The notes under the pieces are model-generated. The model saw only the letters and a program-made list of their open reading frames with translations. It was not told where the DNA came from and did no database searches. Of a stretch of 64,000 nt of DNA, positions 18,001 through 54,696 are shown piece after piece. Position numbers and translations under genes: made by a program. Location: the NCBI GenBank assembly GCA_004431415.1, contig QPMI01000046.1, positions 62,001-126,000 on the forward strand. Direction: 5' to 3'. Each line of letters starts with the position of its first letter. The first letter of the stretch is position 1. Source of the stretch: Cyanophora paradoxa CCMP329. Its lineage: Eukaryota > Plantae > Glaucophyta.

Positions 18001-19330
18001 GCGCTCGGGTTGCTCGGGTTGCCGATGGGCGTCGAGGTGAGGGCGATGCCGGAGCTCGGGTCGCGCGGCAGGACGCTGGCAAGCGGCGACGAGGCCGGGC
18101 CCGCGTAGCCCTTCTCGTCGAACGGAATGACCTGCAGGGTCGATGGGCTGCCGTTGGTCGGCAGGTCGGAGACCGGGATCGATGTCTGGCTGCCAGGCAC
18201 GCTGCCGATGGGCTTCCCGTTCTGAAGAACGGTGTAGCTGTTGGGAGTGCCGTTCTGGGGCGGGCGCCACGAGAGGGTGGCGGAGCCGGGGCCGCTGCCG
18301 TTGAAGCTGCTGAGGGCGAGGTCCGAGGGCGCGAGCGGGCTCGCTGGCATTCCCTCGACGGCAGAGCCGGCAATGCCCGCGCCTGGGCCGATGAGCGGGT
18401 TGTAAGGGCCAGGAGCGCCCATCCCGGGATCGCCCGACGTGGGCAGCGACGGAGGGCCGACGTTGCCGAAGCGGTCGATGGGGAGGACCTGGAACACCTT
18501 GCCGCCGCGCGGCGCGTCGGCGGAGGTCGCGCTACCCGAAACAGTGCCCACGATCTCGCCATCGCTGACGATCCCGTAGCTGGCCGGGCTCCCGCTGGCA
18601 GGGCGGTTCCAGGAGAGCTTCCCGGAGCTGAACATGCCGGGGGCGCTGGTCAGCTGCAGGCCCGTCGACGCCATGGACGGCTGGCTGGCGTTCGGGCCCG
18701 CGCCGGAGCCGACGGAGTACGAAGTCAATGGAGCCTTGCCGCTCGGGGCGCCGATGACCTCGCCGCTGGGCGAGATGGGCGCCACGGAGAACGCCGCTTC
18801 CTCGCCGGGGTTATAGCCGGGGTTCCGGACCGTGTAGGTGTTCAGGCCGCTCGGCGTCGGGCTCGGGGGCTTGACCACGCCGACCTGCTGGCCGTCACGC
18901 AGAATCGCGTAGCCGCCGATGCCGCCCGCAGCGCCGGTGGCAGGCGTGTTCCAGGCGAGATGGCCGCTGGGGTTCGGGCCGGGGCCCATCGGCTGAGCCG
19001 TGAGCGCGATGCCACTGTTCGGGTCCTTGGGAAGGGCCGTCGTGAGGGGGTGCGACGGGGGGCCGGCGACGCCGTTCTCGTCGAATGGAACGAGCTGCAG
19101 CTTCGTGGGCTTGCCGTTGGTTGGAAGGCCGGAGAGCGGGTACTCCGTGCGGTTGCCGGGGGCGGTGCCGATGGGCTCGCCGTCGCGGAGGACGTTGTAG
19201 CCGGCGGGCTGGCCCGCCAGCGGCGGCGTCCAGGTGAGCTTGCCCGAGCCGGGGCCCTTCTCGCCGGCGCTCGTGAGGGAGAGGTTCGACGGGGCGAGCG
19301 GGCTCGGGGCCGGCGCCTCCAGCCCGGAGC
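1..19330 (-). repeat. Coding tandem array of at least 18 units (about 1060 or 1190 bp), each encoding three Ser/Gly/Pro-rich FN3-like modules
   Basis: Recurring motifs LSWKRPASGSPASYTVLKDGK...LQVVPFDSNGVAGPAS, LAWTTP...SFGVLQDG...FSVVPLS and LSWNRP...SYSVIGDG...YQVVPVAANGAVGPAS fit the FN3 pattern W-x-x-P...Y-x-V...V-x-A/P...G-x-x-S. Units are near-identical from 1 to ~12.9 kb and increasingly diverged towards 19.3 kb. Confidence 0.9.
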
Positions 19331-22300
19331 CCGGTAACCCTGCGCCCGACCCCGTCGGGTTGTAGGGCGTCTTCCCCAGGCCGCCGAGGTCCCGCGAGCG
19401 GACGCCGGCGCCCTCGCCGGTGCCCGTGCCCGTGCCAGTGCCCGTGTAGGGCTCGTACGGGGTCGTCGCCTTGCCCTTCGGGAAGATGCTGGGCACGCGG
19501 AGGGTGCCCTTCACGATCGCCGCGGTGAGGCCAGCGACGAGAAGACCGGCGGCGCCGATGCCGAACGCGAGCGGCAGGATGTGCGACATCTGCGACAGGA
19601 CCACGTTACAAATAAAATCAATCCTGTGAATACGAGCGCATGGGGCACCTGGTTGCTGTTGCCCTGGCCACGATCACCATCTTGCGGCGGGAGCTCGCTA
19701 ATGCCAGCGGCGAATGCCGGCTGGCCTGCCGAGAAGTAGTTCGGGATAATTTGGCCAAGGGTGAACTGCGCGATGATATTAGAGACAGTTTGCATTTCGA
19801 CATTGACGCAGGATGGGGCTTCAGACTTGCCGTGGTCTGCGCACAAAATGAATTAAATAAAAAACAGCGCGTCCGCATGTGCGAATGGCAGACGACGCAC
19901 CAAATGCGTGCAGAATCCACGAGCATACCAGATACCCTACGTTGAAGTGGAACGTGCTCATGAGAAGGCGTCTCATTTTGCATTCAATAAAAAATGTTGC
20001 ACATTACGCTGGAAGAGATCTCCGGCATTTGTCGCCATAGGGTCGGGGTTCTCCGCATCGCCGAGCTAAAGCGATCGCGATTAGGCATCGGATCTTCAAT
20101 CACTTGATAGAGGTGCCAACGGTCACGCACCCACATGTTGATCTTCGGCTTGTAACGCGTCTGGCACGGCTCCCAGCTACTGGAGGTCTCGTTCCAGAAG
20201 ATGAGGAACTGTTGCTCCGTTGGCATCGTTGTTTGAGTGATGGGGTACGGGATTTCGATGATGATCGGCTTGGAGTCCGCGAGGCCGTCAATGCGGAAGC
20301 CGAGCACCTGATCATGAGCGCGAAAATCTGTCAGCCGTCCGTCTGGAAGACACTCTGAACTGAAACGTTTGAAGTGCACCGAAATGTCGACGAAGCCGCC
20401 CGTGATCTTGACTGCACCCGCAACTGTGCCTCCAGAGGGACCCCTCCAAACGGGCGGGAAGGGCGAGACCTCCATGTTGAGAATGGAAACGCCGAATCTG
20501 GCTTCCAAGTAAGGCAGGGGCTGATGAGAACACTTGAGAAAAAGGAGAGGAGAGATTGGATTTAGATTCGGTAACATATCCGTAAGAAAGAAATATCTGA
20601 TACGGGTTATCGGCCGACTTGGCGAACCCGTCTTGGCCACCGTCCTTGGGTACAAAGTCGCGAACTTCGAAAGGCAGCTTGACCAGGGCGGGGTTCACGC
20701 CCTCTCCGCCGGCTTTAGTGGGGATGTCGTAGTAGACTCTGCCAGGAATTGCGATTGCGGGCGATCAAAAAATGCGCCGGGCGATCTCGAGCAAAAGAAA
20801 TGAAAAAAGCAATTGCAGACTGCACCTGATGTCAGTAAAGCAAACTGCGCGAAAAGCCAGATTGCAATTGTTATTTTATGCGCGATTGTTATGGAGGAAG
20901 CATAACGCACTTTTTCCGGCAGTCTATCGAGTCCAAGCATTGAGAGTAGTCAATGTCAGCCACGTTTACGGCAGAAGGAGAAGCAGCCATGCGATATCTC
21001 ACCACAGCTGCCGCTTCAGCAGCGGCATTACGCAGACCATCCTCACAACCGCGGCAGCTACGCAAGAGGGATTTTTAGGATTAGGAAGACACCAACTGCA
21101 GCTGCACAAAGCCGTACTTGGCGAGGGCGCCCTGGGGCGCCTTGATGAGGGTGTTGAGCAGGTTCGCGAGTGGGCTGCTTGACGACTCCGTCTGCCCGGT
21201 GAGGCCCGTGCCAGCGGTGCCGACCCAGTCCGGGCTCGCGATGGCCGCAGAGAGCTCTTCCGTGGTCTGATTGTGGGATTTAGCAACATCTCGCATTTAG
21301 ATTTCCAATTGCAAGGGTGATTTGAAAGCTAGGCGTTTGTATAATCAGATGATTGCGCTCCGCTTTCAGGAGGGGCACCTGCTCGAGGTAGACACTGAGG
21401 TCGAGCTCCAGGAAATCGCACGGGTCGAACGCCGGCTTGCAAGATGTGAGCTTTTGCAGCAGCGTCGAGTTGAGGAACCTGTAGCCAGTGAGCACAAAGC
21501 TACAGCGCCTGCGTTGCGCAGAGCTGGATGACAATGAGGCGCATGCGCACGAGCTCGAGACGGAGGCGAGTTTGGTGATGGCTGCCAGCGTGGCTGCCAG
21601 CTCCGGGTACGCGGTCGCGATGTCTCCGGTGGAGCTAGCGAGATTCTTGAGGCGATCAGCAGCGCTGGAGGCTGAGCACGCATCCGTGATCAGCTTATCC
21701 AAGCAAGGCGGCGGTCCTGCGTTCAGACATCAGGCACCGCGCGCGGTCGTCCCCGGCAGAACTCGTTTATAATTTGATACCTTTGCCGCGGAAGAACTCG
21801 CTCAGCGCGGCGATCGCGTCGCCCTCCAAGATCGTCTTCTCCTTCTCGGTGATCGTGCCCGCGGCGAAGCGCTCGCTGATCGAAGCCATGGTAGCGTCGT
21901 ACGTGGCGCACGCAACCGGAGGGTCGACGACCGTGATGGTGAGAGGGACGTCTGTTGTGCAAGATCGTCCACATGAGCGATAGACAAAGCATCGACTGAA
22001 GGTTCGGCACCGGAGCAGCCGCAGGCGTTGTTGGAGCAGATGGTCGCCGTGAGCTCGTGCGTGCCGACGGGGAAGACGTAGGCGGGGGTCATTACGTTGC
22101 TCTCCCCGGGCTTCACGAGGACCGCCTCCTTCAGCTGCGACAGGATCAGAGGATCGCCCGTTCCGCTTCGTAGACTTTCGCACCTTGAGCGAGTAGGAGA
22201 GCGGGAGCGCCGTCGCCGCATTGAAGGGCGGCTTCCAGTTCGAGCACGTGACGGTGAAGCTTGTGCTCATGAACGTACCCTGTGTTGGCGAGACAGTGCA

Positions 22301-25300: not shown

Positions 25301-28300
25301 TCGCACCATTAACGATCCGTAGCCAGTATGCTTGAGTTGTTCAAACCCAAATTGCACGGTTGTCATTCCGAGGCCCCAGCCTTCAACCTGATATAGACGG
25401 TCGAATCACTCTATAGAAAAAAATCTAGTCCATAGACGTTGTTGAACCGCAATGACGCACAGGGAATCCTTGGGTCTGCGGACAGCACGTGCACGTTTCA
25501 GACCAGGCGGATAAATGCAGTCTAAACAACCACGAATACGCACAATCAAGTCCTGGCGATGTGCGATTGAAGAATTCACGAACGGCTGTTAGTGAGCGCA
25601 CATTTGCAGAGAGATAGAGATCTAGAGATCGCGCGCACTCCGCAGTAGGGCATTTGTCTGAGTCGAATGACATCGAATCAGCTTAGATAATCGCGATCGT
25701 GAAAACAATGCGGGCTCACCGGCCTGTCTTGCAACCTGTGCCCTTCGAACAATCAGCCTCGTTGGCAATGTAGTCGTCGGACTCTGCTCGCAGGAGGATT
25801 GTGAGCCCAGAACTACATAGTGAGGCGCTAATAGAAGAAAGCGGAGAGGCAGCTGCAGCGTTGCGTACGAGGCCATGTGTTCCACTGACGAGCGCACACG
25901 TGCACGCGCATGGTTTCATGTGAATAAGGCGTTCGAATAGCTCAGGGCGCCGGCGGGTGAGACTTACCCCATCTCGATCCACGTCGACAAACAAGCCGAA
26001 CCCCGTGTATCGGTTCTGACTGTACCCGAAGGGCAGAGTTGGGCTGACGTTTGGGGCGTATTGCGCGCTGCCAATTGAGCCATCATATCCGTGAATCGCT
26101 GCCATTAAGTGCTTTCCGAAGACAAAGTAATCATTTAGATCTTGCGCGAAGCTGGTCGCTGCTCGCGCTGTTTGGATTCCAGCGTAGGTTGTTTTTACAA
26201 CGGTGCTGCGAATGCCTACGGAAGGCCCAACGAGATCCCAGCTGTGAAACGAGTTCGGCCAGGGGGGGGTACAGGGGGGGTACAGGGGGGGAGGGGCGGC
26301 CCGCGGGGGCCAGGGGCGCTGGGCCCTCGCGCCCCGGATCACGATGCCGCCGGCCGGGGCGGCGGCGGCGGGCGGCGGCGGCGCCGAGATCTTCCCCCTG
26401 CGCGGCGGGCCCGCGACGCTCCTCGGCGCCCTCGCGCTCGCCCTCAACCCGGGGCTCGGCGTCGGCGCCCTCTTCGGCATCCGCATGGACCCGTCGCAGT
26501 ACGCCGAGGTCGAGGTCGAGCCCGGCGCCATCCCGCTCGAGGCGTGCATCGCGGCCACCTCGGGCCTCGACGAGGTGGCCCCCATCTGCGTCTCCGACGA
26601 CGGGCGCTACCTGGTGGTCTGCTCGGACTGCGGCGACGTCGTGACCGTCTGCCGCGCGGAGGTGGTCGGGGACGTGGATATGTGGGCGGCGGCGCCGCCG
26701 CGCGTCGTGTACCGCCGCGTGGGGACCCTCAAGTTCTACATCGGCAACGAGGTCTTCGCCGGCGCCGCCGACGCGTTCCGCTCCTTCCGGTGCTGGGTCG
26801 TCGAGGAGCGCCGCGAGATCTACTTCGCCTGGAACAGGGAGAACGTGCGGATGTACAGGCTCCCGGGGCTGCTTGCGGCCGGTTAGGTAGTGGTCATGTA
26901 TCAATCAAAAACCACGCCGCGGTCGCGCCGGTAGCCCCCCGCTTTTCCGCTCCCACCGCCGCTGCTTGCGGGCCGCGGCGGCCCAGGCGATCGCCCCGGA
27001 GCCGAGCGCGAGGGCGACCATGGGGACCCAGGGGAGGGCCCCGCCCCCGGCGCGGAGGGCCCGCAGGTAGGTCGAGACCGGCGGCGGCCAGGCACTGGAG
27101 GAGGATGCGCTCGGGCGCCGAGTCGGCGTCGGAGGCGGAGGCGGAGGCGGAGCTCATGGGGGGGGGGGGGCGCGAGGTGCGACGTGAGATGTAGTAGGGG
27201 GAAAAATATCTCCTCCTCGATGAAAACGATGGCAGTTCCGCTCCCGACCCAGTTAGAGGGGGGGCTCCGGGCGCTCCTCGCCGCGCCCCCCCAAGAGTAC
27301 ACCCGGGCCTTCCAGTCCTTCATTCAGCTGCCTGGGTTCGCGGAGAACCAAGCCCTGATCCTGCGCCGCCTTGACAGGGAGGTCCGCAGCGCCAGAAACG
27401 ATGCCAAGAGATACGCAACAGAAGTCATCATCGGCCTGTTGAAGTCCGAAGAATACCGCAATCGGGCCGTAGTCGAGCGCACCGTCGAAGAGTTCATTAA
27501 GTCTGTAGCTTTCGGCGGGCCGCCCGAGCTGCTTCGGATTGCAGAGGGCCAGGATCCACTCGCGGGGTATGCGAGGATCACATTTGGAAGGCCCGGCTTT
27601 CTGCACGACAACAACTTCCACGGGGCGTTAGTGGCAAGTGCCGTGACATTCGCCCGCGTGCACCGGGTGCGCACCGACATCACATGGTCGCCGTGGGCAG
27701 TCGGTTGAATCCAGCTGACGAGCGGCTTATTATTTTTTTTCAATGCAGTAGTAACAGCAGAGACTACTATGGGGGCGATCTTTGGGACGCCCGGTGGCGA
27801 GCTGTTGGGCCTACTACACGAAAGGATACGCCCAAGGGAGAATGCAAGTCAGCTCCAACGGAAGTTTTTGAAGCCGGTTGAGCAGGCGGACCGGTACGAA
27901 CGGGGAGAACTCGTGCAAGACGATGATGCCCCCGATCGAATTGCAGCTTTCTGGAGAGGGTACGAGAAGGCTACCAACAGGCCCGTGCATGGGCGCATTG
28001 CCCTTCTAGCGGATAATCTCAATGCGGGTTTCGGCCTCCTTCAGGGGTTTGCAGACGCCGGGGACCAGGCATCGACCTGGACCGTCTTTAGAAATGGTGA
28101 ATTTGTCGAGGCGGTGTTCTTCGACCACCCGACGGCAGTTCCAACACCCCCCGCGGGGTACATGGACTGGCTGTGGGCGAAATCTGGGCACCGGCGCCGG
28201 CGCCGCAGCGCCTATTTTGACGACGACGACGACGACGGTGACGACCAGTCGAGAGAGCTGTTATTCAATATCCTGATCGGGAACATCGACGCGCTTGGGC

Positions 28301-31300
28301 GCTTGTTCCCAGTCGGCTCCGTTTCCGGCTTGCCCGAGATGTTGGGACGAGAAACCAACGAGGCCCTGGCCTTCATCGCCTGGATCCACCAGCCTGGTAA
28401 TGGGATTCGGCGTTGAGTGACCTGGCTTTCCTCAGCTGGAATGAACATTGACGGGGCGCCTTTTGTCGACCGGCGGAACTACGCCCGGTCGCGGCGGCCC
28501 CCGCCGCCGATAATGGCATTGGCCGGGTGTCTCTTCGTGTTAACTAGCGACGCAGCAGAGCTAGCTAGCAGGCTAGTAGCAGCGCTCGAGCTCAGGGCTA
28601 GCTGATCGCACGGGCTCCGAATCCAGGTCCCATAGGGCCCTAAAGGCTATAGCTAGCATGCCGGCCCGTCGCCGCACGCTGTACGTAGCATGCCTGGCTC
28701 TAGAGCCTCTTGCTAGCCCCGCCGCCCCCGGTACTGGCCGTCACCAAGGTGCTCGCAGCCCCCTTGCCAACAACGACTGTCACAGGTGGCAAATTGCCTG
28801 CCTCTGCATACTGGGAGGGCGTCAGCGGGGCGGGGCGGGGCGTCGGCGGGGCGGGGGCGGGGCGGGGCGGGGCGGGGGCGGGGCGGGCTAGAGCTAGCGG
28901 GGGCGGGGCGGGGCGGGCTAGAGCTAGCGGGGGCGGGCGGGGCGGGGCGTCGGCGGGGCGGGGCGGGGCGGGGCGGGCGGGGGCGGGGCGGGCTAGAGCT
29001 AGCGGGGCGGGGCGGGGCGGGCTAGAGCTAGCGGGGCGGGGCGGGGCGGGCTAGAGCTAGCGGGGGCGGGGCAGGGCGGGGCGAGACTATAGCTAGCGGG
29101 GGCGGGGCGGGGCGGGCTAGAGCTAGCGGGGGCGGGGCGGGCGGGGCGAGACTATAGCTAGCGGGGCGGGGCGGGCGGGGCGAGACTATAGCTAGCGGGG
29201 CGGGCGGGGCGGGGCGAGACTATAGCTAGCGGGGGCGGGGCGGGGCGGGCTAGAGCTAGCGGGGCGGGGCGGGCGAGACTATAGCTAGCGGGGGCGGGGC
29301 GGGGCGGGCTAGAGCTAGCGGGGGCGGGGCGGGGCGAGACTATAGCTAGCGGGGGCGGGGCGGGGCGGGCTAGAGCTAGCGGGGGCGGGGCGGGGCGAGA
29401 CTATAGCTAGCGGGGGCGGGGCGGGGCGGGCTAGAGCTAGCGGGGGCGGGGCGGGGCGAGACTATAGCTAGCGGGGGCGGGGCGGGGCGAGACTATAGCT
29501 AGCGGGGGCGGGGCGGGGCGGGGCGAGACTATAGCTAGCGGGGGCGGGGCGGGGCGGGCTAGAGCTAGCGGGGCGGGGCGGGGCGGGGCGCACTTCAGGC
29601 AGCAGGTTCCAGTAGCGAGTGGCGACCGAGCAGAAGTTGACGAGATCATCGAGGTTTAATAACTTGACAATGCGCAGGACGGCATCATCCGGCAACTGTG
29701 GCGCGTGAGAAGAAGAGATACTGTGCGCAAAGAAGAACGCACATCATCCATACACGGCGCATGCTGTGACCGCGAGAGGCGAGGGGTCAGAGAGGCAGGC
29801 AAGCGCGCGCCGCATGCCGCAAGCTGCTTCCGCACCATCTCGCCGGCCTCCGCCTGCGGCACGGCCGCACCGCCGGCGGCAGAACCGCTCTGAGGCCGGG
29901 AGCATCAGGGGAGGGAGAAGCGCGCGCAGAACGATGTTTGCGCACCCTCTGCTGCTCGTTCGTGTGCATCGCGGCCGCCGGCTCGCGCCCGGGCTGCAGC
30001 GGCGAACCGTCGTCATCGCCGGGAGGCTTCCTGGCCTGCACACGCTTCGAGCGCCTCGGCTCGAAGCCGGTATCCTCCTCCTTCTCCTCCCAGCGCCGCC
30101 GCTTCTCCGGCGGCATGATGCTGGTGCACGCGAGGGGTACAGGGATGCGCGCGCATCGACGTACCCCCGGCGACCGACTGACTCGCCGGCGGTGCAGCGA
30201 GCGCCCCCGATCTGGACAGCGGCCCGCGGTGCGAACGATGGCGAGTGCTTCCGTGCGCCAAACGTGCGCGCTGCAGATGACGAAACGGCGACGGAGCCCG
30301 AGCCGAGACGACGGCAGCACCGCCGCCATCGACTTGTTCACGGTGCGCGGCTGCCGATAGATAACCACGCGCCGAGGCCTCAGCCGGTGCCCCGCAGCCC
30401 CTGCCGCGCGACATCTTCTTCCGCATCGTGGCATTCTGTGCGAGCCCGCTCTACACGCTCTTCTGTGTGCTGGCCAGGGCGTGCAGAACGTTCCGAGATG
30501 CCGTGAGCGCTCAGCCAGCGGCGCCCGGGGCCCGCCCGCGCGCGCCGCGCGCGCTCATGCGACGACGCAGGCTCGGGCCTTCAGGGCGCCCCGCGTGATC
30601 TTCCGCGTCGAGTGCATGAAGTACCACCTGCCGTTCTCCGGCGATGTCGACATCCGCGTCGGCACCTTCCGCCAGGTGGGCGCGCCGCGCCCGCAGTGCG
30701 ACCCAGCTAGCTCATGGGGGCGCACAGGCCGTCGATGTTCTCCTCGGCCGCGTGCACATGTCGGCCGCCAGGTTTAAGAAGAAGAGGAGGACCGCGATGA
30801 AGCTCATCGTCTTCAAGCGCGACGTGGTCGAAGGCGACCCGGATCCACGCCGCTACGAGGCGAGAGGCCCCGCCCGACCCGCCCCCGCCAAGCCCGCCCC
30901 GCCCTGAGCGCCCGGCGGGCGCCAGGCTGTCAGCGCATACCTGCTCGAGGGCACCTTCACGGAGGTGACGGAGGTGGTCTTTTCCCTCGACCGCGTGGAG
31001 GGCGTCCTCGCCCACCTGCCCCGGTTCCTCCTCGCGAGGCGGCCCGGGTCGATCGAGATCCGCTTGACGCGCGAGGGCTTCACCGGCCGCGGCAGGCCCG
31101 CGGCCTTCGCCCTCGTTGAGTACCTCATTCGAGCCGCCGCCGCAAGCCGGGGGCCTGCGGCGCTCAACTTCAGCGTCAGCACGTGGGACTACACGACCGG
31201 CAGCCTCCCGCCGTTCATCGCCGCCGCGCAGGAGGACGACTACTTCATCGTGAACACCGGCCTCACCGGGCACAGCATCCCGTCCAACGCCATCAACAGG

Positions 31301-34300
31301 GTGCGCTCGGGCGGGCGGGCCCCGCGGGCGGGCCGCTAAGCTCGCTGCCGCAGCTCGGTTTCAGCATCGACGGCCCTGCGCGCCCACCGGCCCCGCCGCC
31401 TCCTCCTCCTCGACTGCGCCTCGCCCGTCGCGCCGCCCGCCCTTGCCGCCCTCGGCGCCAAGCACGTGTACTCCCCCCCCTCCGACGACTCCTCGTAGCC
31501 CGGCGCCCGCCCCCCGTTCCCCTCCCCCCGCAGCTTGGACCGAAGCTTGAGCCGACTTTCGATCTCACAGCACGACGAAGGGGTAGGGGAGGGGGGAGAG
31601 GCTGAGGGGCACCGAGACCTCCCGGCACTTGTACAGGATGAGCTGGCGGGGCGGGCGAGCGGCCATCGCAGCGAAGAGCTCGAACAGCGGCTCGGCGAGG
31701 CGCCCCATGTGCGCCCTGCGGCGGCGCGGGCGTGTGAGCAGCGGGCGGGCGGGCGGGCGGGCGGGCGGGCGGCGCAGCGCGGCTCGCCCGGCGACATAGA
31801 CGATGAGGGGGTGCGGGCACTCGAGGACGATGCGGCTGGCCGTGCGGATGATCAGGGGGGCTTCGGGCGCTGCAGTACGTGGCGCCCTGGGGGGCCACCC
31901 CGACGCAGCCCACCAGGGGCGTCTCCTTCCCCACGACGCACCAGCCCGGCTCGCACAGGCCCGTCTTGGTGCACTCCCAGCGCCTCACCCCCGTGGCGTT
32001 GGCGCACTGGATCTTCATCTCTCCCGGCTTGCAGCCGTTGAGGCAGAAGTCCCTCCTCGGCGTGCAGCGCGTCTCGTCGGCGCACCCCGTGATGGCGTAC
32101 TCGTCGGGGAGGCACCCGTTGTTGCAGCGGCGCAGGGGGCCCGCGCACGTGGTCTCGTCCGTGCACCCGCTGATGGGCCACTTCCCCGGCTCGCAGCGGT
32201 TGCCGCACAGCTTGTCGGCGCTGCAGACGGTCTCGTCCACGCACCCCTCGATCGGGGCCGTCCCCGGCTCGCACCCGCTGAAACACTCGCCCTTCCTGCT
32301 GCAGCGCGTCCCGTCGAGGCAGTCCTTCATCTCCACCTCGCCGGGCAGGCACTCGTTCTCGCACACCCCCGGCACCTCCGAGCACACCGTCCCGTCGAGG
32401 CAGCCGTCGATGGGGAAGAGGTGCGGGGGGCACCCGTCGAACCGCGAGCACTGGGTCGGGCAGCGCGGGTCCGCCATGTTGGGCGCGGCGGCGGGGCACC
32501 CGTTGCGGCAGATGTTCGGGTCGGCGCCGGCCGTCACGCACTCGCCGGCGGGGCTCGCCGGCGTCCGGCAGTTGTTGCGGACCGGGGCCGACGCGGGGCA
32601 CCCGTTGAGGCACACGTCGAGCCGGGGGCCTTCCGGCACGCACTCGCCGCACTGGTTCTTGATCGGGCGGTCGGTGGGGCAGCCGTTCCGGCACCCCCCC
32701 AGGGCGGTGGAGCCCGTGGGGACGCACTCGCCGCGGGGGTTGGCCGCCGTGACGCACCCGTTCCGCACGAAGTCGCGCGGGCAGCCCGTCGCCGCGCACG
32801 TCCCCTGCTCGAAGGAGCCCGCGGGGACGCACTCCTCGCAGTCGTCCTGCTCCTCCCCGGGGGGGCACGGCGTGCCGGACGCCTCTACCGACGCCGAGCT
32901 TGCGAAGAAGGACGCAACTCGCATTCTGAACAAGGCGATGTGGACGTCGCCAGACTCGGTCACCGTATCCACTGATACGACCTGGTTTGCTACCCTATAA
33001 TTCGGCATCAGCACCTTGTCGTGATCGGGCGGCAAGGAGTAGATCTCGAGGCGGATGCGGGCGAGCCGCCCTGCCGAGACGTCTGCAGGGGCGATGGGCC
33101 AGCCCTTGTAGTAATTCGAATTCGACGTCTCGTTGTATTTGACGAGCACGCTATTCTGCACGGTGGAGGTCTGCCCGCCACGGGAGTGAGTCAGGCTCCC
33201 CCCCCAGAGTGGAAACGGCTGGGAATCTTGAGTCGTCTTCAGAGACTCGAACCCCGCCCAATTCCAAGCATCGTTGATCGAGACCAGCATGCGGATCGCG
33301 CCGAGGGCGTCCGACACGTCCCTGTCGAGCATGCACCAGATGGAGACACGAACGACACGGTACTCGCTGAAGTAGTTGTGCGGGATAAGGAGGCTGCTCG
33401 CGTTGGGGGCCAGGTCACCCGCAGCAAGGAGGCGCTCGCCGACGGAGGGGCCGACGACGGGGCCCCGGACGATAAGACCCCCGTCGAGGAAGAGGTCGCC
33501 GTTGTTGGAGAAAGCGGCCTTGCCCCCCGCAAACGTCAGGGCAGTCGACGAGGGGATCCGCAGCCGCGCGTGGTGGCCGAACACGCCGCCTCCCACAAGC
33601 ACATTGAGGTCGGGCGAGTAGGCGGCGGCGCTGAAGTTGATTGGAGCCTCCATCTCGGTCCAGCTGATACCATCCGTGGGGCGCCAGTCCTCGGGGTCGA
33701 GCGCGAAGGAGTAGACGTAGATCGGGCGCTTGGGCACGGTGGTGTGGTGCTCCGACGCCCGGGGAGGGACCGCAATCACCCTGCAGGCCGCCCCCGCGGA
33801 CCCAGCGCTCCGGGACGACGGGTGGCCGGTCTCATACGCGGACGTCCGGGGCGGCCGCCTCGTGCGCATCGAGCTCGAGATCTACACTGTGCCCCCTTCG
33901 CACGCAGACACCGCCCTGGTTGGCATCCTTGTCGATACCCACAGCGTTGGACCCGACGAGGTCCCCTGTCACACCACCGGCCAGCTGGCCCTGTCCGCCT
34001 CTGCCACCCTCCTCCACGGGCTCCGCATCCAACCCTCGGCTGGGCGCAGGTTCCTTTCAGGCTCGTACTGCGTTTTGGGGCCATTGCCCGCCTGTTCCCG
34101 GGGACGGCGGGGGGCGTGCCGGACGCTTCAACTGATGCCGAGCTCGCGAGGAAGGATGCAACGCGGATCATGAACAAGGCGATGTGGACGTCGGCAAGCA
34201 GGTCGGGGCGGCTGCAGCCGGTTATTCAGCACGAATGGGGGACATGGATGAGGGCGAAATCAACACGCACATTCTCGGGAATGACATGGGCCGGTCCACC

Positions 34301-37300
34301 GCTTAATTGCTACTTTGCAGTGACGGCGAGGGGCGATGATGTTGAAGACGAATACTCAATCGCATCTGACATGTTCGTCCTGGGCAGCCGTGATGGAGGG
34401 CATTCGTGGGAGCCCACGGTTGAAGCCCGGCAAGGATGGGATGACAGCGATTTTAACCCAGAAGGATTCAGATGCATCGTTGCATCGGGAGATGGCCATG
34501 TCTTCGCCTTGAGTCATCCCACGAATTCCTACTGGGGATCCCAGCACCATGTCAAAATCATCGAGACTGTTGATGGGTCCACATGGTCGGTTGTCTCAAA
34601 CGTGACATGCTCGAGCAATGACGGTAATTATTATGAATCTTCCTATGCCATTTACAGGGTTCTCATCTATGTGCCCGAGCTGAAGGCAACTTTCTACTTT
34701 GACGACTACAATGCGTACAGGCGGTCTGATGGGGGGGAATGGGAGGGCGGGTCCCTCGTGGATGGTGTCGACGTAATTCGCTGGTGGGGTGCAACATCCA
34801 TCTTCTACTCCCCAGTGCTAAAGAAGCTCGTCGCCCTGTGTTCGTGGTTCGTACGCACGGAAAACCGCGGCCGGCTTGTGACGGGGCCGCCGGCTGGCAG
34901 GACTCGCCGGGGGCGGCGGCGGCCTGGGCGGAGTGCCCCCAGTGCCCCCGCGGCGTCTACAACTGCTGCCCCCCGCGCCCGCCCCAGCGCCTCGTCATCG
35001 AGCCGTGAGGGCGGGGCCTCTACCGCCGGGCCGCCGCGGCGGCGGCCGCCGCCGGGCGCTTCGGCGCCCCCCTCCGGCTCGCCGCCCGCTTGGCCCTCTT
35101 CGCCTGCTCCAGCTCCCGCACGCCCTCTAGTGTGTACTCGCTCAACCGGGCCCTCTGAAGAATCCTTTCCATAGCCTGCGTCGCCGCCCGCTGGGCCCTG
35201 AGCGCGGACCACTCGGGGTGCAGGCTGCGGACTCGCAGGTACTGCGCCAGGTACAGGTGCTGCAGGGCCGACTCGCTGAGGGCGCGGGGCCGCCGCGCGG
35301 GGGGGCGCTGGTAGGTCATGGCTGTTTATTTGCTGCGAGAAAAAACGGCGCCCTGCTCTAGTAAATTATCAGGACCAGGCCGTCGCCTCCGGTCCGCACG
35401 TTGTAAACCGTGGACCCCTTCCCGCACGGGGAGACGTAGTCCGGGTCTGTGGCGTTGCCGGGGGTGTCATATGAGGCGGCGGATGTCGTACCACCGGTCA
35501 CGACCGCGCTGCCGTAGTAGCTGGAGCCCCCGCCGCCGCCGTAGTAACCGCCACCGCCGCCGTAGTAGCCGCCGCCGCCACCGCCGCCGTCTGCCCCCGC
35601 GATGTCCCCTCCCGTGTACTTCGAGCCGGCTGTGCCGTTTGCCCCGGCGTCACCGCCTGCGGCCTGGGTGCCGCCGCCGCCCCCGGTTTTGGACATAATT
35701 ACTTGGATACCCGTCAGGCCGCCGCCGCCGCCGCCTCTCTGGAAGTAACCCCCGCATGCCCCACCGCCCGCCGTGATGATGTCGTCGGTGCCTCCCTGGA
35801 CCCGGATGGCGGACCGCCCGCCCCCGCTCCCGACGTTCGTCTGGGACGCCGTGCACCGCCCGCCCCCGCCGTAGGTCGCGAGGTGCGCGTTCGGGTTGGG
35901 CCTGCCGCCCTGCCCCACGATGATCACGTAGGTCGCCCCCGGCGTTATCAGCGGCTTCCACTGCTCAACGTCGCGCTGTCGCCGCTGCTCCTCCTCCTGC
36001 TGATGCTCCTGCTGCTGCATCGCGACGACGACGACGATGCGCGCGCGAGTCAGTTCGTTGTTGCGCTACCCCCCCCCACTCCCCCCCCCCTCCTGCATCA
36101 GTGTCGTCGTCAGCCGGCCAACCGGCAGCCGCACCGGGCGCAGACGCCGTGGTGTATGAGACATCCGACGAAGCCGGGCTACAGGATCGTCTTCAGCAGC
36201 ATCAGCAGCGGCGGCAGCATGCCGAGCGAAGTCGACGCTGAGGTGGTCAGGTTGGGACTGGTGCGCGCGATTCATCTGCCTGAATCCGCCATCCGCCTGA
36301 TGATGCACGCGCGCCGGCCCGCAGCCCCGTGCGGGGCGCCGACGGCAGCGTCGGGGGCGCGGCCGGGCGCGGCCCGGTCCGGATCCAGCGCCGCCTCGGG
36401 GCGGGTGCGACGACGGCCGCCGGGGAGGGTCGATCGGCGGTGATGGGGCCGTCGGCCGGCGGGCGCCACGGGCACCGGCGGCGGGGCGGGGCGGCGGGCG
36501 GGGCCGGGGCGGGCGGGGCGGGCGGCGATGACGGTCGTGATGTCGGCGGCGGGGAGGTGGGCGCCGGGGCGCCGGGTGCCGGGGGGCGGGGGCCGGGGCG
36601 GGCGGGACGGGGGCCGAGGGGCGGGCGGCGGGGACGGGCGGGGACGGGCGGGCGGGGGCCGGGCGGACGGGACGGGGGCCGAGGGGCGGGCGGCGGGGAC
36701 GGGGCGGGGACGGGCGGGCGGGGCCGGGGCGGACGGGACGGGGGCCGAGGGGCGGGCGGCGGGACGGGCGGGGGCGGGGGACGGGGCCGGGGCGGCGGGC
36801 GCCGGCTGCTGGGTTAGCGCCGGGCCGGCCGCGGGCCGGTGCCGGAGCGGCGGCCGGGCGGGCGCCGGGGCGGGAGCCGGGTCGAGGGCGGGGGTGGGGC
36901 CGGGGGCGCCGGGGTCCGGACCGACCTTGAGGCGGAGTTTCAAGTGGTTGGAGGCGGGGTCGGCGGCGGCAGGCGGGCCGGCGGGAGGCGACGGAGAGCG
37001 CGGGCGCTTTGCCGGGGGCGGCGCCGACAAGTTGAGGTTCCTGAAGATTTCCTCACGAAGGCGGCCCCGGCACGCTGTGCAGGAGGGGCTGCTGCCCCCG
37101 TCGAACCGGGAGCGCATCATCGCGCACCCCGTGACGTATTGGTCGATCATGTCCAGCATCGACTTGAACTGACCGGAGCAGTGCGCGTGCACGTGCTTTC
37201 CGCAGCGCACCCCCTTGCACCTGAGCATGAGGAGCACCAAGGAGGCGATGATGAACTGCGCCTCCCTCCGGTACCTGCTGGTGAACGTGGGCTCGCGGAT

Positions 37301-39123
37301 CTCCAACATCGCCCTGGAGCATGCGGCGGCCGAGGCGGCCGCGGGGCCGCAGGCGGCGGCCCCGTGGTGGGCGGCGGTCGCGGCGGCCCAGGCGCAGGGG
37401 GTCGCGGCGGGCGTGCCCCGCCTGCGGCGTGCACTGGGTCCAGGCGGCGTCCGACTCGTGCCTCGCCTGCCGCCTCGGCCGCGATGCGGCCCCGCGCTTC
37501 GGCGACCCGGGGCGGCACGCCGAGGAGGCTGCTGCCGTCGGGGATGCCCTCGCGGCCTCCGCCTGGCGCCCCGTCTCCCCCGACATCGTCTTTGCGGCGC
37601 GCGGCTCCTGTGCCCCCGGGAAAGGCGCCCTCTACCTCCCCGATTTCGTCTTCTCCCTCCCGCACGCTATCTTCTGCCTCGACATCCTCACCAACTGCCA
37701 CCGCGACGAGCCCCCCAGCTTCCGCGAGATGCGCGAGGACACCTACCAGAGCCTCACCACAATGGAGCGCCCCGTCGTCTTCCTGTACACCAACTTCGGC
37801 TCCTACTTGACCGCCGGCGCCCGCCTGCGACGTCAGGAGGACCCTCCCGGCACACGCTCTCTGCCATTTCGACCCCCCCCTATGCACTCGCCCGCCGCGC
37901 CGCTGAGAGGAAGCCTCAGCATCAATTACCCCCACATCTTCGTTCGTCAGCTGGAGGAGTCGGGCCTCCTCGCGGCCCTGCGCGCCCGCCCGCCCCGCCG
38001 CATCGTCATCGGAAGCTTCAAATCCTCCGCCGCGGCCGCGGCCGCCGCCTTCCCCAGCCTCCTCGCTCTCGGTGCCGAGGTTCAGCTAGCCGAGGTTGAG
38101 CTAGATTAGAGCCTTCTCCATTCATTCACGGCACATAAACAGCCCCTGTAAAGAAGGGATACCAGCGGGCGAGGACCCGGGCCCACCACGCGTGGGTCTC
38201 CGCCTCGGGCTCCTCCACGAGCGGCATGATGAATGCGGCAAGGGCGGGGGGCGGCGCAGGGTAGATCCCGTCCACGAGCGGAGCGCTGGGGGCCGGCCGA
38301 GTCGGAGAGCCTCTTCGGCGCCGTGCGGGCCAGCAGGCAGCAGTAGTTTAATGCCGTGTGATATCAAAACCAATCGCGTCACCTGCACCTCCCACTTTTT
38401 CCCAGCCAATATTATCCATGACCGCAACGGCCGCTGGGCGGGGCGTTTAAGTCGACCTGCGCCTACGGCACTTGCGGCTCTGGACGGCGGCCTTCTCCAT
38501 AATCGCTTCCTCGGCCGGCTCGAGTGCGCTCATCAGCTCCCTCTCGCGCCGCTCCTCCTTGATCTGGACGTGGGTCCTGCGCCGCTTCTTCTCGGGCGTG
38601 GGGGCGCGGGGGTCCTGGTCCTCGCACTCGGGGCGGGCGTTCGGGCGGTCGCAGTAGTAGCTGACGACGACGGGCCCGGCGCCGGCACTGCGGCGTTTGG
38701 CCTGGAGTTTGGCGGCGTCCATGCGGGCGAGGAGGCGGAGGGGAGTCAGGACGCGGGCGGGGTTGGGGCGGCAGCGGCCGCGGCGGCCGCGGCGACGGCG
38801 GCGGCCTCGAAGGCCGGCCCTGGCGCGGCGGCCCCGGCAGCCCCGGCAGCCCCGGCAGCCCGGCAGCTCCGGCCCCAGCCCCGGCCCGGCAGCAGTTGTG
38901 GGTGGCCCGATCCTGCAGCTGTGGCAGCAGGCCGCGGCGCCCGCTTCCACAACCATTGAGATCCTGCGACAAGCAGCCGTCGTTGGGCGGGCACGACAGC
39001 GTCCGTCAGCGAGGTCCAGCGTGGCTTGGCGGCGAGCCTGGCCGTCTCGATGTACATCGCCATGTCGGAGTCCTACCAGCTGCTGCTTGCGGGCGGGGCC
39101 ACGCCGCAGCTGGAGGAGCAGGA

Positions 39124-39165
<42 letters not shown>

Positions 39166-42100
39166 ACCGACGGGCAGCGCGGCTGCGGGCGCGGTCCCGC
39201 AGCCGGGGGAGGAGGCGGCGTCGGTGGCACCCCCCCGGCCGCGCGCCACGGAGTGCGTCAAATGCCGGGAGCGCCTCCCCGCGGTGGCCCTGGTCCCGTG
39301 CCGCCACGTCCCCGTCTGTGTCGAGTGCTGGGGCCCGCACGTGGCCGGGCGCACCTTCAGCGACGAGGGGGCGGGCATCGCCTGCCCCCACCCCGGCTGC
39401 GGCCTCCGCGTCGACGGCGCGCTTGTCGTGGTCCTGCCTTAGGCAGCTGCAGCGCGTGGTGTGTGTGTGTGTGTGTATTTAATTTTCCACTACAACACGG
39501 CGCTAGCTAGAAGCATCGATATCCGCTCTTCTTCGGCCGTGGCCCGCTCGAACTCCTGGCGCTCTTCCGCTGCCCTCGGCCCGTCATCGTCGTCGACTGT
39601 ACCGGAACCAAGGAGGCGGTGCAGGCGGTCGATGCTCACGGGTTTGTGGGGTAGGCCGTAGAGCAGGTGCCTGATGATGAACTGGCGCTCCTCAAGGAGG
39701 CGCTGAATGCGGGCGGGCGGCCGGCTGGAGTGTATCGCTTCCACCGCCCGCGGGCTCAGGAGGGTGGCGGAAGGGTGGCGCCACCCGACGTCCAGGGCGG
39801 ACCACCACGCCCCCGGGTTCGCCCGAATGAGGCTCGCGATGAGGGGCGTGCCCCACCTTTTCCGGCCGCCGAGCCGGGGGAGCCCGGGGGGGGGCCGGGG
39901 GGGGCCGCAGGGGGCCCGCCGGGGGGCCGGGGAGCCCGGGGGGGGGCCGTGAGGCCCGCCGGGGCCCGGGGAGCCCGGGGGGGGCCATGGGGCCCGCCGG
40001 GGGGCGACTGGTTCAGCCCCGCTGTGAAGGTCGACGGGTTGCGCACCGAGTAGCCTTTCGCAGTGCCAGGCTCCTTGGGCTGAATGGCTGCACAGGGAAT
40101 TAGGCAGGAGACTTTCTGAAGATTCCGTTGTGATTCACCTAGGTGTCCTCGGATCTGTTGTAATTCGCGAATCTGTCAGCTCGCGAATTCTAATAATAAA
40201 AAAACTAAGCTTCAAGTTCCAAGGCACCTCGAAAAGAGGCATGAACTGCTGGTGCTGGTGCTCTAGACAGTACCTGCAGCATCCCGCTCAGTCCTGGATC
40301 CAAAAACGCGACGAACACTCAAACGGACAAAGTCGTCTGCCAAGTAGGGCTTTCGTCCCATAGGCCGAAGCGCGTGTTGGCAGTTGGATCGAAAGGAGTG
40401 CCCGGTTTAGATGTCGAAGCGGTGGCCGGATACGCTCGAAGATTGTACTGGAGCTCCCTAGGCTTTTGTAAGGTATCATAACGGAGCGGACAAAGCAAGA
40501 GCTGACCCGGCGATGTGCCCTAGCCACCTTGGGAACGCCGAACCACCCGCCTTCACGTTCGGATAAAAAACAGAACTTGAATCGGGTAGAGTACGGCCTG
40601 GATGGCAAGGCTCGACACGCCGAAAACAGAAACATGCATCTACTCGACACTAGATGCGTACCAGTCTCTGATTTAAAAATCGGGTAGTTCGCGGCAGTGG
40701 AATGCCGCTCCCTGCATCGAAAATCGAATGCATTAATTCTCGTTGGTAGAGAAAAGAGTTTCGTGTAGCAAGCCTACGGACCCGAACCACTTGCTGAAGC
40801 CGAGTGCGAAATCTGCCACAATTGCAATGCGATATTGATGGGAAAACACAAAGCCAGGACAGAGAAGACGCACTATCCAATCCAGGGGCCGCGACCTTGT
40901 TCCAGCTCGGATCGTACGTTGTTGCGAGCTGCGATATAACTCAGAGTGCGCCATGCTTTTCGATTACGGTCGAAAACTGTGCGCACTGAAAACAAGCCTG
41001 TTGTAGAAGAAGAAGAACGCAAAGATGTCAAAGATGGCTTTCAAAAAAAGCGGGACAGAGGACAGAGGTGAAACACGGGACAGAGGTGAGCTCACCGTCT
41101 GTGACATCCGTACGCCGAATCCTGCACATGGTTTAAGTAGAGCTCTGTGCAGATCGCAAGCTTTTCGTACCTCAGGCACCACTGGAGTGCAGAATTCGAA
41201 GTCGCGTCGGCGTGGGTTATCACCGAGAAAACCAAGAGAGGAAAGGCACGCACTGCATCGTACACGAGAATTGGTTGATCGCATTCGACGTACACGTCAA
41301 GGGTTTTGCTTGTAGGGTCTGAATTGCGCATGCTGTGTCAAAATTCGAGAATTCGCGTGCTGGTGCAAGTTTGAAAGACAAGGGACCGACCTCGTTTGGT
41401 ACCATCTACGATCACATTTTGTTTGCAAATGCCGAAAAGCGGAAAATCCTTCGGGCGAGTCTTTCGCGGGCATGTGCATTAATTCCAATGCCGTGCTCGA
41501 CTGATTTGAAGGAAATGTGCATGTACGTGTACCTTATAAACACCGCTAACTTTCGTCGGCAGCTGGAAGGCCACCCCCACCTTCTCCTGTGCTTTGCACT
41601 CTTTCGCATACGCTGTCGTAACCGTCGTGGCGCAAGGCCAACCCTTTCCGCTGTCGCCACGATTCGATTTTACAATGGCAACCTGCAAAACCCGTACTTG
41701 GTCGAGAGACAGGCACGATCGCGAGAGCAAAGTTCATATATATATATATATATATATATCATCATGGGCACCCGAAATTCGAGGTTGGTAGGAATCGTGT
41801 CATTAAACCCTCCGGCTGTTTTGAATCCACTCTTTGTATCCGGAAAGAAAAGTCTGAAGACCTTCATTTCGATTTTGAAACAAGTGTGCATGTACATGTC
41901 TTAGCAACGCACGTGAAGTAGACAGAAGTGATGTTGATTGGCGCATTCATGTACCGCATACTGCGCGAAGATTTGAATAAATAGTATTGGCAAATAGGCT
42001 TCTAATTAAGCATGTCATTTTAGGCTTCCGAAAGCACAATTGTAAATTTACTTACCAGTAGAAGAAATCATCTGCAAGACGTCGAAGAGCAACGATTATG

Positions 42101-44924: not shown

Positions 44925-45260
44925 CCTCCTAGGCCGCCCCTACCCCTAGGCCGACCCCTACCCTAGGCCGCCCCTATAGCTACCCTAGACCGCCCCTACG
45001 TCGCCCCCTACCCCTAGGCCGCCCCCTACCCCTAGGCCGCCCCCTAGGCCGCCCCCTACCGGTAGGGGTAGGGGGCGGCCTAGGGGTAGGGTAGGGGGCG
45101 GCCTAGGGGTAGCTATAGGGGCCGGCCTAGGGGGCGGCCTAGGGGTAGGGGTCGGCCTAGGGGTAGGGGGCGACCTAGGGGGCGGCCTAGGGGTTATTAA
45201 AGGGGCCGACCTAGGGGTAGGCCTACCCCTAGGCCGCCCCCTACCCTTAGGCCTACCCCA
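44925..45260. repeat. Imperfect palindrome built from CCTAGGCCGCCCCTACC units, centred near 45060
   Basis: C-rich units to the left and G-rich reverse complements to the right of cccctaccggtagggg. Confidence 0.9.
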
Positions 45261-48200
45261 ACGCGGAGGTGGACACGGAGTCCCGCGCCTCTCGCGCCCG
45301 CACTGCGCCCCGCGCCAAGACCGACTACGTGCCCACTGAGGAAGCCGAGATCGTCGAATTCGAAGCAGCTAGCTCTCTCTCACTGTTCTATGGTTTGTGC
45401 GCTCTAGCACCCCGCGCGACGTTCGCAGAGTCCTTCTGGCAACTAAGCATCATCTTCGACACCCGCGGAACGGTTTCGGGTCGCCGCTGACGTCGCCTTC
45501 GCTCCGAGCCGACGAACCCGCGAGGTCCGAGCCGATTCGCTGCGCCGTGCTCTCACAGGCTCTCCGCAGCATTTCACGGGGAGAACATACCTTCTCATAC
45601 ATTCGCGCACTGCGCCCTCGCCCGTCGCCTTCGCGCGGACCAGCTGCAGATCCTGTCAACGCAACCGCGACGTTTCGGTTTCCGGCGCCGGCGCGTATTC
45701 CGGCCTCACCCGTCGCCCTGATTCTTTCGGCAGTGCTTCGGAAGTCCTTACTGACGTTCTGAGTGCCATTAAGCTCGCCGGCGCGAGCCGTGTTCCTGAC
45801 CTGCTCATTCGCAAAATCCGTACCGGGATCTGTCCCGCGCAATACGTACCGGGATTTGTTCCGCGATTCTCATACCGGGATCAGTCCCGCGACGCTCCTG
45901 CGCAGACGCTTACGCTCATCCCATTCGCGCGCAAGCCTCGTACAGGGAACCGTCCCGCGCAACGCTTTCCCCTGCGCAGTTGCACGAATCTGACCCCCTA
46001 ACCACTCGCCCTCGTCCCGCCTGACTCCCTCACGGCCTCTTGCCGTCCCGCCCTGCGCCACGCCGCGCAGTCCGAGACGATTCGGTCTACCCTTTACGAC
46101 ATCTGGTGTCTTGTACCCCCTTCCGCGCCCAGCGCCCACCCCCCCTCGGCATTATCTGCCTTTCGCCCCCTGTCTGCCCCGCTCCACCAGAGCTCCTCCA
46201 GCTCCAGCTCGGGCTACACGAGCAGCTCCAGCAGCTCTTCGTCCTCCTCCTCAAGCCGCGGTGAGCGCGAGCGCCGCCGTAAACGACGGGATCGCAGAGA
46301 CAAGCGCCACGGCAAGAGGTCGAGCAAGAAGTCCCGCACCAGCCGCAGGGTCGCCGCCGCCCCGGGCGCCGCCGCCCCCGACGCCGCCGCCAACGCCGCC
46401 GCCAACGCCAACGTCCGTGCTGACGTCGACGCCAACGCCGACGCTGGCGCCCCACCCTCTTCTGCAAGGCCGGCTCCTCCCGTCCGCGACCGGCAACCTC
46501 ACCCAGCGGCGATCCCAGCCTACTTCAACGCCTCGCAGGACCCGCTGCCCTTTCCCGCGCTTCAGTACGCTTATGACGCTGACGGTCGCCTCGGGATTTT
46601 AGTTCCGCACGAAGAGAACGAAGGGGAGATCGGCGACCCCGTGCTGGCCTACGCAGCCGCGGCCTTCGGGATACCCCGCTCCGTCCTCCGTCCCGCGCCG
46701 ACGATGACATCCGCGCCATCAACCAGCGAGCTGGGCCGTTTGGCGTCGTTCTGGCAGCGGGGATGGACAATGTCTACGCCCAGTGCCTCGCGATCGACGT
46801 CATGACAGCCTGCAGCTGCAACGAGCGTCTCGAGGGCCTGGAGAACGACTTCAACGCCCTTCGAGCTGCCACCCCTCCCGCCCCCCTATTTGCTCCGCCG
46901 CCGCCTCTTTATAATTAGATCCGCCCGCTGAGCTAAGCCTGGTGCTTTCTAGCGCCCGGCCACTGCACGCCCACTCGCTCTAGTATCTTAAGAGGGCGTG
47001 TACAACAGCTGATCGACGACGATGCTGATCATGACCTTCGAATTCGCTCGCAGGCGAGCACGACGTCGCCCCCCAAGGCCAAGAAGCCCGTCCCCAAGAA
47101 GCCCAAGAAGTGAACGCGTCGTAGTCGGAGTCGGAGTCGGAGTCGGAGTTTTACCTTCGCACCTTTTCAATTTTACCTGCGCCTTCGCGCGCGTGCACTT
47201 TTCACCTTTTCACCTTTCATTTAACCTGTACAGCAGAGCTAGCAGAGCTGCTAGCGCTGTTTCAAGCAGATGTCACAGTATACAGTACCAGAGCAGTACT
47301 ATTTGGACAGTATCCTGATATCAACATGACATTATATATTATTGCAAGGGGGGAAAGAAGACCGAAGGTCTTCCCCCCTTGCTTCCCGTTCCCTCGCTTC
47401 AGCCAAAAGTTTTCTATGAGGCCGTTTTCGAGGTCCAGTTTGCAACGAAAATGTGCCGTTATTCGCGATCTGATTGGCTCGGTGGACCGGTCAGCTTTCG
47501 AGCTCGCGAGAGCTCTCTCGAACTCGCGAGAAGTGGTCTTCGAATTCCTTCCGATCCGCGGTTCTGCATGCCATGATGGAACCAGTTCTCCCTATATATA
47601 TAGCTAGCTGTCTCCTCTAGATTTCGGCTTCCTCGCAGTGCGTCGCGTACGCCTTGGGAACCAGTTCTCCCTAGCTGTCTCCTCTAGATTTCGGCTTCGT
47701 CGCAGAGCGTCGCGTACGCCTTGCTCTTCGTTGCGCGGTTCTGCATACAATCACAGTGCGTGTGTACTTCCTAGCTGTCTCCTCTAGATTTCCGCTTCGA
47801 ATTCCTTGCAGTGCGCCGCGTACGCCGCACGGTATCCGTGACGCCTGAACTACTTTTGACTGCATCAAGTTTGCACCGCAGCACTGCGTACCGAGCACGC
47901 GCCGCTGCGCGCAGCCGAGCACGCTGCCCGGCACTCGTGCTTGATAGAGCTTGCACCGCACTGCGGCAAAACCGCTTGCACCGCTGCCTATAGCTAGCTG
48001 CCGCAGTGCGCCGCTGATCGCAGCCGAGGACGCCAGGCCGTCCAGACTGTCATCTCTTGCTGCGCCGAATACGTCTGCGAAATCGAGTTTATACCGCAGT
48101 TTTGCGTGCGCCGCTGCCCGCAGCCGAGCACGTTGGCCGCGGCCCGGCCCGGCGCTTTTGTTGCGCTCGCGCGCGGTTGCCACTCCGCTGCACGGCTTCT

Positions 48201-54170: not shown

Positions 54171-54696
54171 TACTATGATACGGCAATTTAAAACATCGGC
54201 TAAAATTAAAATGCAATCCTACAGTTCTGGGCCAGTTAACATTAACGTTGGGGGCCTAGTTCGAACCCACTGCCAGGCTGGGCCGAGGGGCCGGGCCAGA
54301 TCTAGACCCGGCGGCCGCCGGGGGGCCCGAGCCTCATGATCATACGCGGGGCCGAGGTGTCTGGCACAGCCTGGCCCAGTGGCAGTGGGCGATCTGATCA
54401 TCATCATGACATCATGATCACCGTGGCATCTGGCATGCATATGGCTCCCCCGGGCCGTGCACGTAGCCCCGCGGGACCGGGGGCCTCGGGCCTGGCCCTC
54501 TAGATCTGGCCCAGTACTAGTGGGCCCGAGTTTGGCCGTGGCACATCCACCGCGGCGCTTATCGAACAGCCAACATTAATATTTGAATCCACACATATGC
54601 ATCACCAACAAGCTCTCTAAATTTTAGACTCCGAAGTCTGGAGTCTGGCTGGACTCTGGACTCTGGATGCCGGAGCCCCAGATCGGGAGGCTACGG

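Follow-up and report, generated by a model that had tools for sequence, protein, structure and literature searches.

A 79-bp remnant of a giant-virus major capsid gene among cut and inverted gene pieces in the genome of Cyanophora paradoxa

Giant-virus insertions and methylated viral genes have been reported for the glaucophyte Cyanophora paradoxa (Sarre et al. 2025, PMC12344493), and Mriyavirus-related regions have been reported for a glaucophyte assembly (bioRxiv 10.1101/2025.04.19.649669). In Acanthamoeba, silenced viral DNA undergoes deletion and recombination (Blais et al. 2025, PMC12210455). A term search of PMC6704402 returned no occurrence of "virus", "viral" or "capsid", and a search of the open literature revealed no study of short, microhomology-associated inversions in GEVEs. 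The locus described here is a further instance of the known GEVE-type fossil, with an unusually legible record of breakage.

The window, i.e., the whole stretch of DNA that was analyzed, comprises 64,000 nucleotides of one C. paradoxa contig. A fragment of an NCLDV major capsid protein is located on its minus strand at positions 33674..33752, and it consists of 26 codons (33675-33752) and one shared G, together 79 bp. The translation of 33675-33752 is EHHTTVPKRPIYVYSFALDPEDWRPT, and DGISWT follows in the same frame. An earlier note, made from the sequence alone, had proposed a capsid identity that could be examined with the Capsid_NCLDV profile. This was confirmed, the match to PF04451 had an E-value of 6.7e-5 (23.1 bits, profile positions 110-135 of 196), and 18 of the 26 residues were identical to a giant-virus capsid. 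A better match to a cellular family was not found, as PF04451 was the sole Pfam family at E<=1. At E<=10 the PDB contained just two matches, 8h2i_bu, annotated as "MCPv1", with an E-value of 0.0018, and 8rbs, annotated as "Major capsid protein", with one of 0.89. With a profile of fetched capsids the fragment reached 32.9 bits among 1450 six-frame stretches of the window, while the best scores in 10 shuffles were 0.4-6.6 bits. This profile had been built from capsids selected by motif, and thus the Pfam match is the independent test. A second capsid piece was not detected by the capsid profile over the six frames of the window, the next match had an E-value of 2.6.

Known NCLDV capsids share the motif HHT..P...IYVYSFAL.PE...P with the fragment, which contains the C-terminal capsid motif HHT..P..IYxYSFAL.PE...P and covers only the above-mentioned part of the profile. 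The hallmark named in the earlier note, YSFALxPE...P(S/T)GxxNFSR, is therefore present in its front part, but the fragment is cut at 33674, before G-x-x-N-F-S-R. About 360 capsid codons are missing before the fragment and about 50 behind it, and it does not contain a full-length double jelly-roll. It is the remnant of an NCLDV major capsid gene and no member gene itself. The earlier note had also seen a meaning in the capture of one of the most conserved motifs; more simply, a conserved motif would be what stays recognizable. The GC-rich donor that had been proposed is supported by G or C at 26 of 26 third codon positions (GC3 1.00), but this is suggestive only, because a host-like fn3 gene also has a GC3 of 0.89.

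The next question was whether the DNA is real. Twenty of the 24 runs listed, all from one organism, contain all sampled words of 32800-34900, and 18 were flagged as possible sources of the window DNA. Continuity of the mosaic around the fragment was examined for 32600-35100. The runs X3 and X9 each yielded one contig across this region with 0 differences from the window, and X2 yielded one contig across 32600-34922, also with 0 differences. Thus, the mosaic is present in single contigs of all three DNA runs, and because single contigs cross it without a difference in two of them, it is no assembly chimera. In addition, a second capsid copy was found on a separate contig in all three runs (869, 951 and 3240 nt), showing that related capsid DNA exists elsewhere in the same organism. 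It aligns to exactly 33674-33731 with four differences (54/58 identical). Its loose ends were read in X2 only, 30 letters per side, and translated by hand. Past 33674 it continues with GTLNFSRINE, the canonical capsid motif that is absent from the window. This continuation fixes the break at 33674, and the boundaries given in the earlier note were right. On the other side the second copy has DGGGDVRVIP where the fragment has EHHTTVP, and it may itself be a cut piece. The reading of the fragment as an assembly chimera or a chance motif could draw on its Pfam score, which lies below the whole-protein cut-off of 34.8 bits. However, identical single contigs were obtained from runs of 2012, 2019 and 2024 (two of them flagged as possible sources of the window DNA), and the second copy carries the downstream motif, so that this reading is largely refuted and retains hardly any probability.

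The surroundings of the fragment were analyzed piece by piece. Piece A (31860..32867, minus strand) is a cysteine-rich repeat coding stretch in an open frame with a GC3 of 0.99 and a Pfam match that was sub-threshold only. It lies head to head with piece B (32869..32952, plus strand), which has 28 codons and ends with WTSP. Piece B is a paralog of 34113-34196 with 86% DNA identity, and their codon differences in the plus frame are nine synonymous and three non-synonymous ones, compared to seven against four in the antisense shadow frame. Piece C (32953..33590, minus strand) encodes a beta-rich and possibly fibre-like domain with a cut C-terminus; a database homolog was not found. It is a paralog of piece E on the opposite strand (46% identity over 48 aa, a score reached by 0 of 500 shuffles). 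Piece D (33591..33674, minus strand, left limit approximate) contains DGISW and one presumably propeller-like blade. It is followed by the capsid fragment, which lies head to head with piece E (33751..34077, plus strand), the back half of the domain paralogous to piece C. Piece F (34113..34880, plus strand) starts with a B-like linker, continues with a BNR/Asp-box propeller-like sequence, and is in a frame different from that of piece E, with the shift near 34075. In the Atlas, 34170-34880 as query gave values of 0.83-0.87, under 0.9; the top three clusters were viral and BNR families were lower. At these values the viral clusters nearest to piece F are a lead only. For D-C the Atlas contained no usable match, and a single-sequence AlphaFold prediction of 32871-33674 had a pLDDT of 29.8 and was set aside.

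From left to right, the order is thus A on the minus strand, B on the plus strand, C, D and the capsid fragment on the minus strand, and E and F on the plus strand. GC3 is 0.79 for B and 0.81 for D-C. The pieces contain no stop codons and show no CpG loss (o/e 0.96-1.44). To the right of the mosaic, on the minus strand, a small basic ORF of 99 aa with an AT-rich leader (35020..35319) belongs to no family, and a glycine-rich domain (PF12810, 35361..35960) has PHROG matches of unknown function (query 35361-36020); in total, one of eight proteins matched in PHROGs. The fragment had earlier been described as isolated and as captured. Neither term is supported, because the fragment is one of several adjoining pieces in a stretch with two inversions, and its neighbours to the left and to the right are cut genes as well.

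The first inversion is indicated by the ends of pieces B and D. Piece B ends with WTSP at 32952 on the plus strand, and piece D starts with DGISW at 33674 on the minus strand, 722 bp apart. We assume that WTSP is the first and DGISW the second half of an Asp-box. Such half-motifs are rare in the six frames of the window (two occurrences of W[TS]S.D and three of DG.[ST]W), and, judged from the sequence, the two are likely the halves of one Asp-box, which would mean that the segment 32953-33674 was flipped. The ends of this segment have a 2-bp inverted match. Piece D aligns to piece F just past the B-like part, with a score at chance level (reached by 183 of 500 shuffles), and an intact copy in which B is continuous to D was not found to confirm the continuity. 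The earlier note was correct that the capsid fragment is fused in frame to an unrelated piece. It had suggested ACGG as shared microhomology of this joint; these four letters are present, but the overlap is most likely only 1 bp, because piece D, if it once stood behind WTSP, had CCA and not ACG upstream. At the joints of the mosaic and of the inversions, 1-3 bp are in common.

The second inversion is 4 kb away and independent of the first. The front part of a gene (37414..37845, plus strand) corresponds to residues 45-190 of P0007 with 77% identity and has no Pfam match, and the back part (38585..38767, minus strand) corresponds to residues 190-250 with 79% identity. P0007 is a continuous paralog of the 37.4-kb ORF on another contig (tig00001375). 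The inversion (37845-38764) is clean, with a 3-bp inverted match at the breakpoints. Based on a motif, the split gene is presumably nuclease-like, and a second, convergent gene was probably split as well. Because this independent inversion splits a gene that has a continuous paralog, it supports the breakage mechanism proposed below. Both inversions lack recombinase-type sites (matches of 2-3 bp, identities of 15/40 and 11/40 across the ends), and a recombinase family was not detected among 100 selected frames. Thus, neither the inverted recombination sites nor the recombinase of a shufflon-type site-specific inversion system were found. A CRISPR-like spacer-capture array does not fit either, because no repeat flanked the capsid fragment in a self-comparison, and the 84-nt repeat of the mosaic is paralogous coding sequence. 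A RING finger ORF (39050-39442, PF13920, E 3.8e-6) adjoins the second inversion. The 10-mer ATAAACAGCC occurs at 35329 (minus strand), before the small basic ORF, and at 38135 (plus strand), inside the second inversion, and a sequence resembling TATCAA..AAACCA is located at 26899 and again at 38362; both are possible viral promoter or terminator motifs.

Taken together, the 79 bp derive from the major capsid gene of a giant virus, and there is a good probability that they are what survives of a virus genome that integrated into this alga and was then fragmented on site during the repair of DNA breaks. A GC-rich Nucleocytoviricota genome would have integrated, with the capsid gene between virion-type genes of the other strand. 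One complex event with three breaks, in the Asp-box, in piece C and in the capsid gene, would then have inverted the 722-bp D-C piece and removed what lay between C and the break in the capsid gene. In this way D would have become linked to the capsid gene through an overlap of 1 bp, and B to C through one of 2 bp. One such event is the simplest assumption, since nothing is missing at the B-D break, whereas the other partner has been exchanged. A further deletion would have taken the front of the capsid gene together with the front of piece E. CpG methylation may have silenced the insertion, leaving the breakage events unselected, and the scrambling would have produced the in-frame fusion incidentally. 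End-joining and template-switch repair are established pathways, and the joints would fit either of them. The lack of stop codons and of CpG loss argues for a recent event; a long methylated decay fits poorly, because both would be expected from it.

Alternatively, as the term "captured" would suggest, the 79 bp could have been copied as repair filler from a capsid gene elsewhere, either in another insertion or in a free virus. A joint at each end of the fragment, the lack of another capsid piece in the window and the related capsid copy in runs of the same organism are in accordance with such a templated insertion. However, the related copy, differing before the K codon, is not the template. 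Its depth explains the extra depth over the fragment in X2 and X3 (in X9, a single 21-nt joint piece contributes as well), and thus no closer donor was seen. In addition, the flanks of the fragment are cut gene pieces too. Templated insertion is, therefore, rather unlikely.

A close donor was also looked for by motif scans, which fetched 25 loci with 28 capsid motif rows, two of them cut by contig ends. Among these rows from the collections scanned, the best identities were 18/26 aa (L005) and 56/79 nt (L021), and no close donor was found. In the viral contigs scanned, no exact match of 38 nt was present, and a 44-aa protein search returned only the window's own gene model among six candidates. 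The metagenome capsids L018-L024 (382-556 aa where readable) have ALDPEDW.PTG in common with the fragment, and L005 has PKRPIYVYSFAL in common with it; neither L005 nor the L018-L024 group carries both motifs. Twenty-six residues are too few to place the donor in a tree.

A further alternative is scrambling inside the virus before integration, by shuffled virion or fibre genes or in a defective genome. The paralogous modules B/F and C/E side by side would agree with this, as would the lack of stop codons and of CpG loss. On the other hand, the capsid is essential in a free virus, so that a capsid gene of 26 codons would not be viable there, and recombinase-type inverted repeats are missing at the breakpoints, as described above. 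This scenario was thus judged to be improbable.

The cut pieces are also part of a chimeric open frame of 858 codons (31293..33869, minus strand), which runs through antisense E, the capsid fragment, D, C, antisense B and A. The EukProt model tig00000180_g13630.t1 of Cyanophora paradoxa (732 aa) uses most of this frame. A young, selected host gene made of viral parts would be in line with this model, with an upstream ATG and with the sense pieces of capsid, D-C and A in one frame without a stop. Yet only two frame coincidences are needed, which by chance occur about once in nine cases, and two antisense stretches lie inside the frame. The frame is, therefore, read as a by-product. Moreover, joints at the first G of a codon would favour in-frame joins, and the gene model forms a one-member cluster. 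No RNA run was among those listed as containing the locus, and run X22 does not cover the capsid fragment, neither of which is evidence on expression. A selected host gene has little probability, and the protein predicted for the alga is probably a composite of parts from broken genes.

The neighbouring pieces are presumably of viral origin as well. Viral-contig motif scans, phage tblastn and a protein search revealed no clear viral homolog of them, nor did two giant-virus records, which gave one weak glycine-rich match (E 0.0098). Another NCLDV hallmark was not detected among the 100 selected frames of the window, 99 of which were from 19.6-64 kb. Both results count against the reading as an integrated virus. 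The setting is eukaryotic, the window also contains fn3, REJ, F-box and C2H2 matches besides the EukProt model. Hence, a viral hallmark lies in eukaryote DNA as in a GEVE, but a GEVE-type cluster of multiple hallmark genes, extending over tens or hundreds of kb, was not detected among the selected frames. Compact, apparently intronless ORFs at 25719-28416, with AT-rich leaders at 27220 and 27769 and without a Pfam family, could represent the left portion of this viral remnant; a beta-rich ORF (25719-26270) lies within this stretch. Positions 1-19600 contain, on the minus strand, a tandem array of about 18 units, each 1.06-1.19 kb long and coding for fibronectin type III-like repeats, and several neighbours change frame. 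A GC-rich tandem repeat (28820-29590) with GGGCG runs and CTAG/TATAG cores adjoins an F-box fragment (29471-29743). Long imperfect palindromes with CCCTAGG-type repeats are located at 44993-45295, and dispersed repeats with 75-96% identity at 47338-48155 and 52623-54178 are possibly decayed non-coding mobile elements.

The fragment is a further trace, at the level of the capsid, that an unsampled GC-rich giant virus left in a glaucophyte, and it offers a single-base view of how an integrated virus can be dismantled. More speculatively, and with a low probability, the main way in which the alga disarms giant viruses after integration may be end-joining, with closely spaced, short-range inversions and deletions that disrupt genes before point mutations accumulate. 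Such shredding may be genome-wide, because the second capsid copy also lacks the usual HHT motif just upstream. If this were true, in-frame chimeras of viral modules would keep arising, and if the density of inversions holds across viral regions, the inactivation of endogenous giant viruses becomes directly testable.

The earlier conclusion that a giant virus infected this host is reasonable in view of the published insertions in C. paradoxa (PMC12344493). Those insertions represent giant-virus DNA in the nuclear genome of the same host. They were described at the level of genes and methylation, the word "capsid" does not occur in the main text, and the contig name of the window is absent from one supplement file, whereas a hallmark fragment of 26 codons is described here. 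The degraded insertions of Acanthamoeba (PMC12210455) are similar in that partial copies are scattered in the genome. The words "inversion" and "microhomology" do not occur in the main text of that study, in contrast to the sub-kilobase inversions with overlaps of 1-3 bp inside genes at the present locus. The GEVEs of Euglena gracilis (PMC12455990) are likewise eroded, with degradation by deletion and recombination as in Acanthamoeba, contain capsid genes and are thought to be unable to reactivate, but they span 86-311 kb with several hallmark genes, compared to about 10-14 kb with one capsid fragment in C. paradoxa.
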